Virus record (IMG/VR): IMGVR_UViG_3300035492_000030
Coordinates: 1 to 64,000 of that record
DNA length: 64,000 nt
From: a virus
Strand: one strand, 5' to 3'
The position numbers were made by a program, and so were the translations under genes. The notes beneath the pieces are model-generated. The model was not told where the DNA came from and made no database searches. It saw nothing but the letters and a program-made list of their open reading frames with translations. Of this stretch, positions 15,827-46,568 are shown piece by piece. How positions within the stretch are numbered: position 1 is the stretch's first letter; each line of letters begins with the position of its first letter.

Positions 15827-16417
15827 ATGAGCAGAGTTTATATCCAACCCTCTTGGGTCGATTCATGTTCCGACCATCTTGAGTGGTCTGGTCAGAGTCC
15901 AGACGACAGGAAGCGTAAATCTCACATGATTGGCAACAAAGCCAATCTATCTGCTTATAACGAACCAGAACAAAAGAAAAAGTCAGCTTCGAAGAAGCGA
16001 TCAGCATTTGAGCGGGCAAATTTAGCAGACGCTCATTACGAAAGACTTGAGCAATTATCAATTGAACTCGATGAAGAATTGGACAGCGGGAAATTATCTT
16101 TTGAAGATTGGTCTTGTGCAAGAAATCAACTAGACAAAAGATTAGACAAGGCTTGGCAGCGCGTCTGCTCTGCTAGAAATTGGAATCCAGCGGAAAAAGA
16201 TGATGAGATTTATTCTCTTTGCCTTGATGAGATGGAAGAAAAACACCAACAAAAAAGAACGCAAAAACCAGTTGACAACCAACAAGAACAAGATTTAAGC
16301 TTTAGTCATGAACTGATCGACAGTCTTAGTGATGGAAATTGCTTCAAGTTACCATTGCAAAAACTATTGACAGCGAAAGAAAAGATGGTTAAGATATTGG
16401 AAATCCTCAGAAACTAG
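15827..16417 (+). CDS. Hypothetical protein
   Basis: 196 aa from the ATG at 15827 (GGAG 10 nt upstream). Charged and coiled-coil rich. Confidence 0.55.
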   Translation: MSRVYIQPSWVDSCSDHLEWSGQSPDDRKRKSHMIGNKANLSAYNEPEQKKKSASKKRSAFERANLADAHYERLEQLSIELDEELDSGKLSFEDWSCARNQLDKRLDKAWQRVCSARNWNPAEKDDEIYSLCLDEMEEKHQQKRTQKPVDNQQEQDLSFSHELIDSLSDGNCFKLPLQKLLTAKEKMVKILEILRN

Positions 16418-35140: not shown

Positions 35141-35489
35141 AATTCATCCTCTCGTTATGCCACTCTAGAAGCAAGCCGACTTCAGCATAAGCTGGAAAGC
35201 TTGAATTCAATGCTACCAACTTCTTCAACGTAGTGCAACCACTATCCTCCAAATATTCTTTCAAATCAATATTCAACTTTGTAGCAATTCGTTTCAAATA
35301 TTTCGTCTCTGTGTTCGGGATATGAGAAGCAGGTAGACGCACACCAAGCCGACTACCTAAATTTCTCCAATAATTTTCATCAAGAAAATCCTGCTTGAGA
35401 TGTTCTCCAGCTTTCTTCTTTTCTTCACGAGCAATACGAGCTTTCTCAAGAGCTTCTGCTCTTTGTTCAGGTGTTAGATTTCCAAGCAT
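35130..35489 (-). CDS. Hypothetical protein, possible DNA-binding protein
   Basis: ATG at 35489 preceded by TTGGAGGATAAA. LTPEQRAEALEKARIAREEKKKAG looks like a helix-hairpin-helix-type N-terminus. Weak call. Confidence 0.5.
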   Translation of the reverse strand: MLGNLTPEQRAEALEKARIAREEKKKAGEHLKQDFLDENYWRNLGSRLGVRLPASHIPNTETKYLKRIATKLNIDLKEYLEDSGCTTLKKLVALNSSFPAYAEVGLLLEWHNERMNCGH

Positions 35490-35602
35490 TTTATCCTCCA
35501 ATTAATTTAAATTGTTCTAAGGCATACACAGCGAAGGGTACAATATCGAACGCAATTTTAACATATCATTTTCCTTAGTATCAATGTTTTTCATAGGCAA
35601 TT

Positions 35603-37054: not shown

Positions 37055-37233
37055 TGAAGATTAAAGAGCTAATCAAAGAGTTACAGAAATACGATCAAGA
37101 AGCTATTGTATGGGTGTGGCAAAAGTCATTTCTTGGAGAGGAAAGTGGACAGAACAGAATCTATCGCAGTAAGCTGGAGTTTGTAACACAGTCTAAAAAC
37201 AATGTTCTTAAAATCTACTTGGATGGAGAGTGA
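37054..37233 (+). CDS. Small hypothetical protein (59 aa), MKIKELIKELQK family
   Basis: Below cutoff. ATG overlaps the upstream TGA. Paralog-like to 12490 and 27947. Confidence 0.45.
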   Translation: MKIKELIKELQKYDQEAIVWVWQKSFLGEESGQNRIYRSKLEFVTQSKNNVLKIYLDGE

Positions 37234-37235
37234 TA

Positions 37236-37715
37236 ATGAGTGAGCATGAGAAGTGTGTTGGTGAATCTGATGAATGGTATACTCCTAAATCTATTTTTGA
37301 TGCGATTGGCCTTACTTTTGACCTAGACCCGTGTTCACCAAGCAAAGAACATTGGACCCCGGCAAAGAAATTCTATACAAAGGAAGACGACGGACTGTTA
37401 TCGGAGTGGCAAGGTTTGGTGTGGATGAACCCTCCTTTTGGCGGTAGGAACGGACAAGTCCCTTGGCTTAGGAAATTCATTTCTCACGGAAATGGGATTG
37501 CACTTGTTGCAGCAAGAACTTCGTCTGGATGGTTCCATGAAATTGCTCCTCAGATGGATGGAATGCTTTTTCCAAAAGGAAAGACAAAATTTGTAAAACC
37601 AGACGGGACGATTGGAAAGTCACCCGGCACAGGCGTTGTGTTGTTTTCTTTAGGTCAGGTTGCATCAAATGCGCTTAAAAACAGCGGTCTGGGGATTTAT
37701 CTTGATATTAAATAA
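37236..37715 (+). CDS. dam: DNA N6-adenine methyltransferase (phage Dam-type)
   Basis: SDEWYTPKSIFDAIGLTFDLDPCSP and WMNPPFGG (NPPF catalytic motif). Confidence 0.75.
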   Translation: MSEHEKCVGESDEWYTPKSIFDAIGLTFDLDPCSPSKEHWTPAKKFYTKEDDGLLSEWQGLVWMNPPFGGRNGQVPWLRKFISHGNGIALVAARTSSGWFHEIAPQMDGMLFPKGKTKFVKPDGTIGKSPGTGVVLFSLGQVASNALKNSGLGIYLDIK

Positions 37716-37965: not shown

Positions 37966-37994
37966 TTGACAATATGAAATATTTATGTTATATT
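37966..37994 (+). promoter_or_regulatory. sigma70-type promoter driving a short non-coding transcript
   Basis: TTGACA-17-TATATT. Confidence 0.65.
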
Positions 37995-38000
37995 TGGCAC

Positions 38001-38172
38001 TGAATGACTAATAGCGTCAAGAAAGTAAATTTCATAACGTTTCTCCTCCAAAACGGGAATGTCACGAACACATATTCCTCCTACTGTGTTCATATAATAC
38101 CCGTAAACAAACCGCGCAATGTGGTTTAGCCTTATCCACTTATTCCTCCTAGAGAGGATAAGGCTTTTTCTT
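38001..38172 (+). ncRNA. Candidate sRNA of about 170 nt with three CCUCC (anti-SD-like) motifs
   Basis: Bounded by the 37966 promoter and a strong intrinsic terminator. TTCTCCTCC at 38041, ATTCCTCCTA at 38075 and 38142. No plus-strand ORF. Confidence 0.5.
38128..38172 (+). terminator. Rho-independent terminator
   Basis: AGCCTTATCC-18 nt-GGATAAGGCT followed by TTTTCTT. Confidence 0.75.
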
Positions 38173-38310
38173 ATGTTGTGTAAATGTACAGGCTGATGTA
38201 CGGGCGTCAACCGCTTAAACGATGCCAGAACGCGAAAGCGTCGCGGAACTCGCCGGAGATCGTGGGTAAGGCCGGCATGTCGGAGATCAGTACCGACTAC
38301 ACAACATAAT
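38171..38310 (+). other. GC-rich multi-hairpin element closed by a 12-bp stem
   Basis: TTATGTTGTGTA (38171-38182) pairs with TACACAACATAA (38298-38309). Inside are about 5 hairpins, two with the same CGGAGATC 5' side. Confidence 0.6.
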
Positions 38311-38350
38311 AAAGAGCCTTAGATAATAAATATTAAAAGGACAATGAATT

Positions 38351-39004: not shown

Positions 39005-39088
39005 GCGGGAGTAGCCGAGGGGAGCTTCTAACTCCTTATCCGTAAATGGAGCTGAAAATGTGCGTTCGACTCGCACCTTCCCGTGCCA
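39005..39088 (+). other. tRNA-like fragment with canonical T-arm and encoded CCA but aberrant D-arm
   Basis: GTGCG-TTCGACT-CGCAC T-arm, acceptor-like GCGGGAG/TTCCCGT, ...GCCA end, GGGAG-CTTCTAA-CTCCT anticodon-like arm. Cannot be folded into a standard cloverleaf. Confidence 0.3.
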
Positions 39089-39093
39089 AATTT

Positions 39094-39171
39094 GCCGATG
39101 TAGCATAGATGGATATGCACTAACCTTGTAAGTTAGATCAGGTGGGATCGTTACCTTCACCATCGGCACCA
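39094..39171 (+). tRNA. tRNA-like gene, anticodon UGU (Thr), non-canonical T-arm
   Basis: Acceptor GCCGATG/CATCGGC 7/7 bp. D-arm GCAT-AGATGGAT-ATGC. Anticodon arm CTAAC-CTTGTAA-GTTAG. Discriminator A plus encoded CCA. The T-arm GTGGG/TTCAC has two G-U pairs and a 9-nt loop. Confidence 0.45.
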
Positions 39172-42611: not shown

Positions 42612-43526
42612 ATGATAGAAGATAGGCCGAAGGGATTTGTTGATTACACAGGGTTTAAAACTGGTAAAGTAACAGTCCTTGAATTCCACTCTTGGCATGT
42701 TCAACCAAGTGGTCAACGAAAGTCTAAATGGCTTTGTCAGTGTGACTGCGGAAACAAGTTTGTTGCTCTTGGATACAACATTAAGAAAGAAGGTCATACT
42801 ACTTCTTGTGGTTGTGAAAAGAAAGTAACAATTAAAAAGTTTTGGGCAAAAGTAAATTCAGGTGAATGGGTTCCAGAGAAACTTATTGGTGAAAGATTTG
42901 GTAGGCTTTTTGTAAATGGATTCAGTCATTGGCATGAAAGCGAATCACAAAGAACATCCGTATGGGATTGCACTTGTGACTGCGGTAATACAGTGAAGAT
43001 GCGACGTCCATATCTAATGAGTAATGAAGTTTCAAGCTGTGGTTGTTATAAATCAGAAATTCTTTCCGCACTGCAAACAAAACACGGGATGCATGGAACA
43101 CCTACTCATAAATCTTGGACGAAGATGAAAGAGCGGTGCCTATCAGAGTACTATAAAGAGAAAGAGTATTATCAAGACAGAGGTATTACAATCTGTCAAG
43201 AATGGATTGACTCTTTTGAAGCGTTTTATGCAGACATGGGCGAACGACCAGAGGGAACTTCTTTAGATAGGATTGACCCTAATAAAGGTTACTATAAAGA
43301 AAATTGTCGATGGTCTGATCTTACTATCCAAGCGTACAATCGCAGGATGAACACCAATAACACATCAGGTAGGACTGGCGTCTATCAACTTAAAAACGGC
43401 AACTGGCAAGCAATTATTGTCCACTATAAAGAAAGAATCACATTAGCATATGATGTTTCCTATGAGGAGGCTTGTAAAGCGAGAGAAGAAGGAGAGTTGA
43501 AATACTATGGCTGGACAAAACAATGA
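42612..43526 (+). CDS. Homing endonuclease (degenerate HNH plus AP2-like), paralog of 28574..29296
   Basis: Two CxCDCGN...SCGC repeats, GERPEGTSLDRIDPNKGYYKENCRWSD, NTSGRTGVY...WQAII (AP2-like). Its 3' end overlaps the terminase start. Confidence 0.65.
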   Translation: MIEDRPKGFVDYTGFKTGKVTVLEFHSWHVQPSGQRKSKWLCQCDCGNKFVALGYNIKKEGHTTSCGCEKKVTIKKFWAKVNSGEWVPEKLIGERFGRLFVNGFSHWHESESQRTSVWDCTCDCGNTVKMRRPYLMSNEVSSCGCYKSEILSALQTKHGMHGTPTHKSWTKMKERCLSEYYKEKEYYQDRGITICQEWIDSFEAFYADMGERPEGTSLDRIDPNKGYYKENCRWSDLTIQAYNRRMNTNNTSGRTGVYQLKNGNWQAIIVHYKERITLAYDVSYEEACKAREEGELKYYGWTKQ

Positions 43527-45030
43527 AAATATAATTGGACCTCAGTCAAAATTTCAGCAGGACTACTTGGCTTCAGATGCTAGGATTCTGGTAGCGGGGG
43601 GTGCAGCCGGCTCATCGAAGAGTCACATAGGCCTTATGAGACATTTGAGATGGATGGATGATCCACTCTATCGCGGTTTCTGTATCCGTAAAAACTCAAC
43701 TGCTATTATGAAAAGCGGCGGTCTTTTTGACGCCGCTGTTCACTTATATTCTCAAGTTGATGATATTAAGATTAAGATGAAGGACCAGCGTATCGTGTTC
43801 TCATCAGGAGCTTCAGTGTCATTTTCGCACTATGAAAATGATAAAGCCGGTCAGCTATATCATGGTCTAGAACTTAGTAATGTGTTCTATGACGAGTGTA
43901 CACACGCATCAGAAAGTCATATTTGGTGGCTTATTTCTCGCCTAAGAACTAAAGCTAACATGGACCCTTCAATCTGGCTTTCATGCAACCCTGATCCTGA
44001 TAGTTTTTTATTCGATTGGGTTAAATGGTGGTTATACCCAGAAGGCCATGAAAAACATGGATTGCCTGACCCAGAAAAGAACGGAAAAGTTCGTTGGATT
44101 CTTCGTAGAGAAGGAGTTATGTTTTGGGGTGACTCTAAGGAAGAAATGATTATCAAATATGGTAATCCAAACCTTCCAATGGATCATCCAAAACAAGTTA
44201 AACCTCTGAGTTTTCAAGTTGTTCTTGGTACAATTTACGATAATCCGTGGCTAATAGAAAATCAACCCGAATACTTGGCTTCACTTGAAGCACTTCCCGA
44301 TGTTGAGAGAAGAAGACTTCTACTTGGTGATTGGACAGCTCGTGAATCTGCTTCAACATTCTTCTCCAGAAGCTGGGTAAAAGAGACAGTCGAAGAGCCT
44401 CCGCAATCTGAAATTGTAAAAACTGTTCGTGTTTATGACTTCGCTGGAACGCTCAAATCAGATTCAAACCCTTCCCCGGATTACTTTGCAACAGTTAAAA
44501 TGAGTAAATTAAAATCTGGCGAATACTTTGTACATGATGTACAGAGAACCAGACTTAGGTTTGGTGACTGGAAAGAATTTATTCTCCGAAATGCTTATTC
44601 TGACGGACCTAAAGTTGATGTTGTGCTTCCTGTTGACCCTAACCCAGCAGCTAAAGCCGCTACAACAATTCTGTCGCGTGAGATTGCTGAAGAGGGGTTT
44701 TATGTGCGCACTGTTAAAAGTAGCACAAGTAAACTCGATAGATTTAGGCCATTCTCATCATTGGCAATGAATGGTAGCGTAGTGTTCCTTAAAAATTGTG
44801 GAACAGACTACGAGAATAAAATCTATAGCGACTTAGGATTTGTATATAAAGAGCTTGAAGGTTTTACTGGCCAGCGCCGTGGAGGAGAATCGGGTCATGA
44901 CGATATTGTCGACTGTCTGTCCGACTGTGTACATATTCTAGCTCAAAAAGTTACAATCCCGAACTTCTTAGGTGGACTTCAGTCAGCAAGCTCATCTCTA
45001 ACAACATCTAACCCATTCGTAAGGAACTGA
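43507..45030 (+). CDS. terL: Terminase large subunit
   Basis: Walker A VAGGAAGSSKSH, Walker B NVFYDECTH, C-terminal nuclease-like VRVYDFAGT...HDDIVD. Upstream of the portal gene. Confidence 0.8.
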   Translation: MAGQNNENIIGPQSKFQQDYLASDARILVAGGAAGSSKSHIGLMRHLRWMDDPLYRGFCIRKNSTAIMKSGGLFDAAVHLYSQVDDIKIKMKDQRIVFSSGASVSFSHYENDKAGQLYHGLELSNVFYDECTHASESHIWWLISRLRTKANMDPSIWLSCNPDPDSFLFDWVKWWLYPEGHEKHGLPDPEKNGKVRWILRREGVMFWGDSKEEMIIKYGNPNLPMDHPKQVKPLSFQVVLGTIYDNPWLIENQPEYLASLEALPDVERRRLLLGDWTARESASTFFSRSWVKETVEEPPQSEIVKTVRVYDFAGTLKSDSNPSPDYFATVKMSKLKSGEYFVHDVQRTRLRFGDWKEFILRNAYSDGPKVDVVLPVDPNPAAKAATTILSREIAEEGFYVRTVKSSTSKLDRFRPFSSLAMNGSVVFLKNCGTDYENKIYSDLGFVYKELEGFTGQRRGGESGHDDIVDCLSDCVHILAQKVTIPNFLGGLQSASSSLTTSNPFVRN

Positions 45031-45098: not shown

Positions 45099-46568
45099 AT
45101 GGCAGAAGAAAATACGCTAACCCAAGGCGTAGAAAGCACTATCCCACGATTAAAACTTGGGCAAACTTCTTATAACGGCCTTTGGACACTAGGTGGTAAT
45201 GTCTTTGAAGACTGCCAACAGGAGCTAAGGTGGCCTCACGCAATCCACACATACAAGAAGATGGCAAAGGATGCTACTATTGCTCCCGCTCTAAATCTTG
45301 TAGAAATGGCAATTGCTCGTGTACCTTGGACTGTTAAGATTCCAGAAGGTTATGAAGACCAACTAAAAGATAAAGCTGAATTCCTTCGTCAATGCATGAA
45401 TGATATGGAACATTCTTGGGGTGCTTTCATTCGTCAATGCGTTACATTCAATCGTTACGGATTCTCTGTCCATGAGAAAGTGTATCGGAGGCGACTGAAA
45501 CAGAAAGGAAGTAAATACAATGATGGATTGATTGGCATTCAATCCCTGCCGATCATTGCTCAAGACACCATTGATTCTTGGGACTGGGATGATGAAGGGC
45601 GTAAGCTCACTGGCCTGTATCAGCTTGTTGTTAAGCCAACGGGGAAAGATAAAGTACAATACATTGGTATTTCCGATGATGTATTTATCCCTAGGAAGAA
45701 GTTTCTACATTTCCGTAATCAGCCAATTAAAGATGACCCCTGCGGACAATCGCCATTGGCAAATTGCTGGTGGGCTTGGAAGTTTAAGACTGCGTTGGAA
45801 GAACAAGAGGCTATGGGTATTAGCTCTGATCTTCGTGGTCTGCGTGTTCTTTATATCCCGCCTCGTTACATGGCAGAAGATGCTTCTCCTGAAGACAAGG
45901 CTGTTTATGAAGAATATAAAAAGATCATGCGTAATATTCACATGAATGAGCAGAGTGGTCTTATTCTTCCGCAGGTATTGGATGAGCAAGGTGAACAGTA
46001 TTTTAAGTTTGATGTAATCTCTATTACTGGCCAAAAGGCACATGACGTTCACGCTGTAATCAATCGTTATAAAAATGAGATTATCAGTTCTCTGATGGCT
46101 TCTCAACTTGTTCTTGGTCAAGATGGGGGAGGTTCTTTTAGCCTCGCTGAAAGCCTACAAGGTATTTCAGATATGGCTGTTGAGTCCAAGTTAATTGAGA
46201 TTCAAGAACAGCTTAATCATGACCTTGTACCTCAGCTATTTTCACTAAATGGTTGGAGCACAGAAGTTCTCCCATACTTTGAATTTGGTCGAGTTAAAGA
46301 CACTGATCTCGATGTTCTGTCGAAGTATGTGCAACGTGTTGCAAGCGTTGGCCTCCTTCCGAAGACTCCAGATGTTGTCAACTATCTCACTGAAGAAATG
46401 GGTGTGCCTGCTCAATTCGCCCCAGATGAAGACCAGATGGAAATGGATGCACTGATGACTGGTGCAACTAGCAGGGCTGGTGATGGACTTTCAACACCGG
46501 GAGAGGGTACGTCAACAAGTGTGATTGGTGCAGACGATGCTTCTGCTGGAAATATGGAGAATAGTTGA
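45099..46568 (+). CDS. Portal protein
   Basis: 489-aa ORF between terminase and prohead protease. Acidic/Gly-rich C-terminus. Assigned by position and size. Confidence 0.65.
   Translation: MAEENTLTQGVESTIPRLKLGQTSYNGLWTLGGNVFEDCQQELRWPHAIHTYKKMAKDATIAPALNLVEMAIARVPWTVKIPEGYEDQLKDKAEFLRQCMNDMEHSWGAFIRQCVTFNRYGFSVHEKVYRRRLKQKGSKYNDGLIGIQSLPIIAQDTIDSWDWDDEGRKLTGLYQLVVKPTGKDKVQYIGISDDVFIPRKKFLHFRNQPIKDDPCGQSPLANCWWAWKFKTALEEQEAMGISSDLRGLRVLYIPPRYMAEDASPEDKAVYEEYKKIMRNIHMNEQSGLILPQVLDEQGEQYFKFDVISITGQKAHDVHAVINRYKNEIISSLMASQLVLGQDGGGSFSLAESLQGISDMAVESKLIEIQEQLNHDLVPQLFSLNGWSTEVLPYFEFGRVKDTDLDVLSKYVQRVASVGLLPKTPDVVNYLTEEMGVPAQFAPDEDQMEMDALMTGATSRAGDGLSTPGEGTSTSVIGADDASAGNMENS

Follow-up and report, generated by a model that had tools for sequence, protein, structure and literature searches.

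The window analysed here (positions 1 to 64,000 of the virus record IMGVR_UViG_3300035492_000030, a 64-kb stretch of phage DNA) contains an element at 38171-38309, on the + strand of an intergenic region of 392 nt. Comparison with related sequences predicts that this element encodes a folded RNA of about 139 nt, a six-helix junction in which helix P1 closes the junction and P2 and P6 flank a central domain consisting of P3 to P5 (Table 1). That the element is a structured RNA, and that it belongs to a family of RNAs sharing the same outer frame, here called the shell, can be stated with high confidence. Judged from the sequences searched, this family is widespread in phages and prophages and is found neither in Rfam nor in annotations. 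As for its function, the favoured reading is that the shell is a scaffold resembling transfer RNA (tRNA), which serves to excise and stabilise a variable RNA payload; the probability of this reading is estimated at roughly 0.45.

The element was first noticed from the letters of the window alone, as a GC-rich row of five hairpins within a perfect 12-bp closing stem. The stem is as described: TTATGTTGTGTA (38171-38182) is exactly complementary to TACACAACATAA (38298-38309), and dinucleotide shuffling of the 392-nt intergenic region produces a perfect 12-bp inverted repeat in 1 case out of 300. The repeat grows to 24 nt with 92% complementarity (38159-38182 with 38298-38321), which makes it the longest inverted repeat (at most 300 nt apart) of the whole window, and it overlaps the 3' arm and U-tract of an upstream terminator. 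The GC-richness is also borne out, with a GC fraction of 0.60 at 38200-38299 versus 0.23-0.45 in the flanks. The whole element has a folding energy of -52.8 kcal/mol (z = -3.7), and the 115-nt interior alone is not more stable than its shuffles (z = +0.13). Energy therefore backs the closing stem only, and the five hairpins needed comparative evidence. Based on the value of +0.13, the hairpins could have been taken for chance and the interior for the junk loop of a processing stem, an explanation that the homologues overturned. The motif CGGAGAUC, common to the last two hairpins, does occur twice in the window, both times within the element. Two copies are not beyond chance (32 of 100 shuffles reach this count), and the copy in P6 is part of a loop-loop contact found throughout the family.

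An interior 24-mer from the P3 region, GGCGTCAACCGCTTAAACGATGCC, has exact matches in two IMG/VR contigs (L040 and L041), both of them GC-rich, and a gapped pattern added two more (L042 and L043); the first two IMG/VR search patterns gave no match, and neither did a search of GenBank phages with the window sequence. Two matches in genome contigs (L038, L039), considered as a sign that the GC-rich interior came from a host, are bare 23-mers in GC-rich coding DNA and were dismissed as chance, and L044 and L045 were rejected as homologues because they are coding sequences. Together with the window element, the four close homologues form an alignment of five sequences, A5, in which 97.6% of the pair cells are paired, falling to 27-43% when the partner is slid by 1-3 columns. 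Both sides have changed in 20 of the 42 pairs, which none of 500 shuffles reaches, and all six helices are kept through compensatory changes. The closing helix P1 is the clearest case, since all of its 8 pairs change on both sides among the five sequences (UUAUGUUGUGUA in the window versus UGAGAGUG, AGAGGGUG, AAGUGG and UGUUGGUG). P2 starts with GUACA, GCGCA, GUGUA or GCGUA, and its pairs are compensated, as GUACA/UGUAC versus GCGCA/UGCGC and GUGUA/UACAC. The stem of P4 co-varies as CGC/GCG, CGG/CCG and CUC/GAG, and its loop is always a GNRA tetraloop (GAAA, GCAA or GUAA). P3 is almost invariant within the window-type subfamily, including a conserved G.U pair. It is the conservation of G.U pairs on the + strand, in P3 columns 35/52 (4 of 5 sequences) and in columns 58/71, that marks + as the strand of the RNA. 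Folding the homologues jointly with RNAalifold independently predicts the same six helices.

Homologue covariation also decides which of the five hairpins drawn by eye are right. Four are correct as drawn, and the third had been placed in the wrong register: its stem CGCGA/UCGCG is broken in L041 and the GNRA register co-varies, so that the hairpin is redrawn as ACGC-GAAA-GCGU. Beyond the helices, the P2 loop sequence GCUGA (38192-38196) is complementary to UCAGY in the P6 loop (UCAGU at 38287-38291), with one variable pair that is G-C, A-U or G.U, the last being the form found in the window. As the two loops are complementary and co-vary, a kissing loop is indicated. P6 abuts P1 directly, with no spacer in between. 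A second long-range contact, a pseudoknot between CCGC in the P3 loop and GCGG in J4/5, stays a candidate, because the two are complementary but invariant in 5 of 5 sequences, which makes covariation uninformative. The P5 loop stretch AUCGUGGGUAA is likewise invariant across the window-type subfamily, and the centre as a whole (P3-P5) has up to 24 invariant bases in a row in phages ranging from AT-rich to GC-rich. Of the two interpretations offered in the original prediction, structured or stable RNA is thus the one that holds, with six compensated helices, G.U pairs on the + strand, a loop that is only ever GNRA and a co-varying loop-loop contact.

A covariance model built from A5, called R1, also matched L042:1150-1251 and L012:742-897. 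These have only P1, GAAUG, P2 and P6 in common with the window element, and their centre is different. A search with the shell pattern GAATGCGYAGRCTGATRCGC found at least 120 IMG/VR contigs, and R1 matches 76 elements in 71 sources. The conserved order of the shell is P1, AAU, P2 (GCGCA-GGCUGA-UGCGC), centre, P6 (GCCGG-AGAUCAGCA-CCGGC) and P1 again, where AAU and the first G of P2 make up the family signature GAAUG. The window element has the same parts, namely P1, AAU and P2 with the loop GGCUGA (38173-38201), followed by a 5-bp P6 with the loop AGAUCAGYA that abuts P1 (38279-38309); its R1 score of 159.9 bits is expected, as it is among the sequences from which the model was built. When the 76 members are aligned on R1 (alignment A6), the shell has 97.3% of its cells paired and shows compensation in 17 of 23 pairs (8 of 8 in P1, 4 of 5 in P6, and 2 in the kissing loop), in a set that was gathered by a pattern fixing P2 and fitted to R1, which favours the structure of R1. 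The first kissing pair is G-C in 66 members, G.U in 7 and A-U in 3; the second is C-G in 75 and G-C in 1. One further R1 match in the window, at 35383-35517 on the - strand, lies within an open reading frame (ORF), has many non-standard pairs and scores 17 bits, and was set aside as a false positive.

One subtype of the family has members in 135 GenBank phage records; mEp460, Stx2 phages, the P1-like RCS47, HK620, SfV and Klebsiella phages are among them. It also occurs in 846 of the 5426 complete E. coli genomes (16%), where it is found on chromosomes as well as plasmids. At the match, the 12 E. coli records listed are all free of annotated features. HK620 has its member at record positions 16093-16188, with qut on one side and the late terminator tQ on the other, which puts it within the short pR' transcript. 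The mEp460 member follows the repressor gene at a distance of 390 nt and shares its strand. Here (L166, 3517-3653) two hypothetical coding sequences (CDS), mEp460_036 and mEp460_037, overlap the element on the opposite strand and are probably mis-annotations. Several loci have two members each, with unlike centres, in tandem or close together, as seen in L042 (667-802 and 1150-1251), L047, L110, L116 and L123. The member at L012:742-897, from a close relative of the window phage, has an unlike centre of about 100 nt and is found downstream of a gene for a 129-amino-acid protein that is 80% identical to the one next to the window element; the window has tRNA-like genes in that place.

No Rfam family is known for this element as far as the models searched can tell. 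With all 4227 models of Rfam 15, the whole window gave no match at the gathering threshold, no model matched within 38173-38309 when a 1.6-kb region was searched at E <= 10, and in 19 family loci the elements stayed without a match at E <= 0.1. For the HK620 leader, searched at E <= 10, the one match was an 18-nt fragment of rydB. The Rfam/Infernal search suggested with the original prediction thus ended without a known family. Conserved strings and descriptive terms led to no description in the literature searched, and it is possible that the family has been described elsewhere.

What the members do not share is the centre. The 76 centres, between 24 and 160 nt long, make up 68 unrelated groups. 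The shortest of the members, at 84-91 nt, adopt the fold of a four-way cloverleaf junction, and T-loop-like motifs are found in three centres. The centre of the member at L050:3649-3849 (- strand) has a canonical hammerhead core, CUGAUGA-GGCC...GGCC-GAAAC, that matches Rfam HH9 with 28 bits, which is below threshold. When the window's own tRNA gene is aligned with R1, the helices correspond one to one, P1 to the acceptor stem and P2 to the D arm, at 11 bits. A tRNA gene lies at most 1 kb from 12 of the 76 elements, in 11 of these 12 on the same strand. Tested directly, the element is not a tRNA: ARAGORN reports none in the window, and the Rfam tRNA model does not match. Only the overall topology is that of a tRNA. 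The tRNA gene just mentioned (39094-39168) scores 38.5 bits, above the Rfam threshold, and neither ARAGORN nor the scan at the gathering threshold picked it up. A second tRNA-like sequence, at 39005-39084, has a long variable arm and scores 22 bits against the tRNA-Sec model.

In the lineage of the window phage there is a further layer around P1. Its relatives, here meaning contigs that encode the same or a related 129-amino-acid protein, keep the outer pairing GGCUUUUUCU/AGAAAGAGCC in L002, L003, L011 and L013, whatever its insert. The insert has 115 nt in the window, 16 in L002, 17 in L013, 76 in L003 and L026, and 81 in L011, and these inserts have no detectable similarity to one another in either orientation. 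As the interiors of L026 and L011 are unlike that of the window in both orientations, they are different inserts and not diverged copies. The flanks in L002, L003 and L026 are 84-94% identical to the window. The insert in the same slot of L003 (114-219) and L026 (1124-1229) starts with GAAUGCG and includes GCCGGAGUCAG, two stretches that by eye resemble remnants of P2 and P6. The insert may be a rearranged former member, and R1 gives no match to it. One or two similar stems, of the form UUUCU.../...AGAAA, are found in more distant relatives (50-64% protein identity). In a set of these (A3), which was chosen partly by complementarity so that the paired percentage is biased, 88% of the cells are paired, as against 42-50% with the partner slid, and 14 of 19 pairs co-vary. 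Such stems, many of which have a 2x2 internal loop (CA/GC), surround unrelated inserts upstream of homologues of the 129-amino-acid gene in L015-L035 and L008. In L020 they are found at 2261-2324 and 2331-2432, with an enclosed insert that is tRNA-like (26.4 bits to the tRNA model). The outer layer is best read, from these alignments, as a lineage-specific double-stranded stem bracketing interchangeable small-RNA inserts.

In the mechanism proposed here, the shell would mimic a tRNA in its L-shape. The stack of P1 on P6, with about 13 bp, would take the part of the acceptor and T arm, the contact between the P2 and P6 loops would replace the elbow of D-loop and T-loop, and the centre would stand in the place of the anticodon arm. 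It is because of this tRNA likeness that the shell might act as a natural scaffold, so that an RNA payload, the centre, could be released from a longer transcript (a leader or a read-through product) and build up as a stable RNA. In the window, the unit would sit at the tip of the lineage-specific 24-bp stem, a putative RNase III-type processing site, and a cut there would separate three products: an upstream RNA with CUCC loops, the element RNA, and the messenger RNA (mRNA) of gene 38351, which encodes the 129-amino-acid protein. Since the window-type payload has long invariant stretches across phages from AT-rich to GC-rich, a conserved cellular partner or ligand, bound in trans, would be expected. 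A broader version of this idea is speculative and, on balance, doubtful: a natural modular system in which phages swap unrelated payloads (aptamer-like, hammerhead ribozyme, T-arm-like) into a kissing-loop, tRNA-shaped shell and so deliver small functional RNAs. If it were true, the payloads would be expressed in lysogens or early infection, they could be decoys or inhibitors of host defence or of translation factors, for example, and P3-P5 of the window would be one conserved payload.

Several known systems resemble parts of this picture. Phage tRNA clusters encode tRNA-like small stable RNAs, such as the species 1 and 2 RNAs of T4 (rnaC, rnaD). In these and in tRNAs, as in the shell, the two ends form a closing helix on which the last hairpin stacks, and the first and last loops touch; minimal shell members are four-way cloverleaves too, some of them among phage tRNA genes, with a size range for the family of about 85-220 nt. 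A difference from tRNAs is that a hypervariable domain takes the place of the anticodon arm. Bacterial Y RNAs (YrlA) also mimic tRNA, and they share with the shell family a modular build, with an end-formed stem plus a tRNA-like domain, and a presence in some phages. In contrast to the shell family, which matched no Rfam family, YrlA keeps the canonical T-loop and D-loop motifs, and among the ORFs examined beside the elements no rsr/Ro or rtcB genes were seen. The engineered tRNA scaffolds of Ponchon and Dardel, reportedly made for recombinant RNA expression, have the same principle of a constant tRNA-shaped frame with an insert in place of the anticodon arm that is processed and protected. 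These are artificial and use true tRNAs, whereas the shell is natural and not a tRNA, and its processing and protection would be by analogy. Processing stems for RNase III occur in ribosomal RNA operons and in the early transcripts of phage T7, and the stem of the window lineage, with about 24 bp and 1-2 internal mismatches, similarly brackets an RNA and links an upstream RNA with a downstream mRNA. Because P1 elsewhere has only about 8 bp, this 24-bp layer is a trait of the lineage and not of the family. Lastly, the flavin mononucleotide (FMN) riboswitch, or RFN element, is also a six-helix junction closed by P1 with peripheral hairpin loops in contact; unlike the riboswitch, the window element has no sequence or model similarity to it, no expression platform and no link to a metabolic gene.

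A number of points weigh against the scaffold reading. Transcription, processing and stability of the element RNA are all deduced from sequence. The window element follows a terminator and lacks its own promoter, and it is absent from the close relatives L002 and L013, so that it must be dispensable for the phage. The shell has neither the T-loop nor the D-loop consensus (its loops are GGCUGA and AGAUCAGYA) and no 3' CCA, it is not detected by tRNA models, and its loops would be joined by a 5-bp Watson-Crick kissing helix in place of the G18/G19 contacts of a tRNA. The way in which A6 and A3 were put together belongs here as well: as the pattern used for collecting fixes P2, the covariation of P2 is under-sampled and the apparent breadth of the family is biased.

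The alternative that the element is a cis-acting leader would make it a riboswitch-like aptamer, a put-like modifier of RNA polymerase, or a translational operator for downstream late or packaging genes. Its location fits such a role, as it lies 41 nt before gene 38351, and other members are found in the late leader of HK620 (pR' to tQ), between a Q-like antiterminator gene upstream and a holin gene downstream (L108), 109 nt before TerS (L050), and, in three of the four closest homologues (L041, L042 and L043), 0.5-1.9 kb before a TerS or TerS-like gene. Invariant junction and loop bases combined with co-varying stems would also be aptamer-like. This alternative is nevertheless judged unlikely. 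No shared expression platform follows P1, the centre, where any ligand pocket would be, is not conserved across the family, and the window element comes after a terminator and not before one. Members are also located beside a repressor gene or after an ssb gene (L057), and the 68 downstream ORFs of family members form 64 unrelated clusters with no constant partner gene and no consistent gene class; a shared partner protein was not found either among the neighbours of sampled members. Their common denominator, judging by these gene neighbourhoods, is an operon boundary or a leader transcribed early or in the lysogen, and not a packaging function. A less probable alternative again is a decaying or selfish module derived from a tRNA and without a function for the phage, such as a pseudo-tRNA, a former integrase attachment target or a mobile RNA gene, the shell of which may persist by promoting its own spread or insertion. 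Such a module would explain why the element is present or absent among relatives with flanks that are 90-94% identical, why several loci have two copies, why centres are replaced wholesale, why the shape is that of a cloverleaf, and why L003 and L026 retain (by eye) only the GAAUGCG and GCCGGAGUCAG fragments in the same slot. It does not sit well with a shell that is 97% paired and compensated in P1, P6 and the kissing contact in hosts from E. coli to GC-rich soil phages, or with a window-type centre that is itself conserved with covariation, and no transposase or integrase is consistently adjacent to the members examined.

The other interpretation in the original prediction was that of a DNA element, either a pac/cos site or a set of hairpin sites for the product of gene 38351. 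An inverted repeat near a candidate small-terminase gene, with four close homologues upstream of terminase genes, is what such a site might look like. The covariation is of the RNA type, with G.U tolerated on one strand only, GNRA identity kept and the loop-loop contact co-varying. Family members are also found far from packaging genes, between Q and holin or beside the repressor, and the ends of long contigs from relatives show no constant spacing to the locus. A DNA site is thus considered very improbable. Next to negligible is a protein-coding gene of 41 codons (38184-38309). This frame is open across the whole element, and it has no ribosome-binding site and no homologue among 5.8 billion proteins. 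In A5, L040, L041 and L042 contain frame-shifting indels, L041 has an early TAA, and the substitutions are of the kind that compensate stems, all of which speaks against the frame as a conserved peptide.

If the family is truly undescribed, it would be among the more widespread unannotated structured RNAs of phages. With 16% of the complete E. coli genomes carrying one subtype, which model phages (HK620 among them) also have, it is directly testable. The combination of a conserved frame, a co-varying tertiary contact and an exchangeable centre is unusual, and it suggests a general route by which phages could express and protect small RNAs. For annotation, hypothetical ORFs that run across the element on its other strand (mEp460 is an example) are flagged as probable errors. 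For the window itself, the intergenic regions around gene 38351 would be a cluster of RNA genes rather than a packaging signal.

Table 1. Predicted features of the element and its surroundings (window positions)
Feature	Position	Strand	Basis or remark
Promoter, strong sigma-70 type (TTGACA, 17 nt, TATATT, with TG)	37966-37994	+	Sequence
Upstream RNA of about 170 nt (inferred transcript)	37966..38170	+	Ends in terminator hairpin 38128-38165 and U-tract
Outer P1 extension, 5' half	38159..38170	+	Also 3' arm and U-tract of the upstream terminator; pairs with 38310-38321
P1, 5' strand	38171..38182	+	Exact complement of 38298-38309; inner 8 bp (38175-38182) are the family P1
Junction J1/2, AAU	38183..38185	+	Invariant in 76 of 76 aligned members
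P2 hairpin: GUACA, loop GGCUGA, UGUAC	38186..38201	+	3 of 5 pairs compensated
P3 hairpin: GGCGUC, 12-nt loop AACCGCUUAAAC, GAUGCC	38203..38226	+	Alignment A5
P4 hairpin: ACGC, GNRA tetraloop GAAA, GCGU	38230..38241	+	Covariation
GCGG in J4/5	38243..38246	+	Candidate pseudoknot with CCGC (38211-38214) of the P3 loop
P5 hairpin: GCCGG, loop AGAUCGUGGGUAAGG, CCGGC	38252..38276	+	3 of 5 pairs compensated
P6 hairpin: GUCGG, loop AGAUCAGUA, CCGAC	38279..38297	+	3 of 5 pairs compensated (A5)
P1, 3' strand	38298..38309	+	Complementarity and covariation
Outer P1 extension, 3' half, UAAAGAGCCUUA	38310..38321	+	24-nt inverted repeat, 92%
Gene 38351, 129 amino acids	38351..38740	+	Conserved family, no annotation; candidate small terminase

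Gene 38351 is a candidate for the small terminase, with TerL found 4.8 kb downstream, and four of the RNA's closest homologues are followed by genes that resemble small terminases or score as such. Its product has no match in Pfam, PHROG or the PDB sequences, and no Foldseek match at E <= 0.001; compared with the TerS-like protein of L042, hhalign gives E = 0.13, which is not significant. In Felix O1 and the related phage V22 no TerS has been recognised (PMC7289586). Its protein family, of which 44 relatives were found, matches nothing in any annotation library, and one IMG/VR search for relatives of the protein gave nothing. The nearest GenBank relative of the window phage is Pseudomonas phage vB_PsaM_M1 (Ounavirinae), with a TerL identity of 82%, and the element is absent there. 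At the same position as gene 38351, vB_PsaM_M1 has an unannotated ORF of 126 amino acids with a similar build (L037:2976-3356), and the CDS annotated on the opposite strand (L037:3198-3662) looks spurious. Beyond gene 38351 there is a second non-coding stretch, with the tRNA at 39094-39168 and the tRNA-like sequence. It is also worth noting that tRNA genes adjoin two of the four closest homologues of the element.

The upstream RNA has three hairpin loops, each with UUCCUCC or CUCCUCC. These motifs could pair with Shine-Dalgarno sequences, to which they are complementary, and the RNA may sequester ribosome-binding sites or RNAs with GGA motifs. It is kept in L002, L003 and L013, and loops with CUCUCC or CUCCUC recur in relatives at 50-60% identity. 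Among the other genes of the window phage are those for a Dam methylase (37230-37715), TerL (43507-45030) and the portal (45099-46568). An HNH endonuclease gene (42612-43526) slightly overlaps the TerL gene, as it does in vB_PsaM_M1, and the match of the window TerL to phrog_979 begins at profile position 146.

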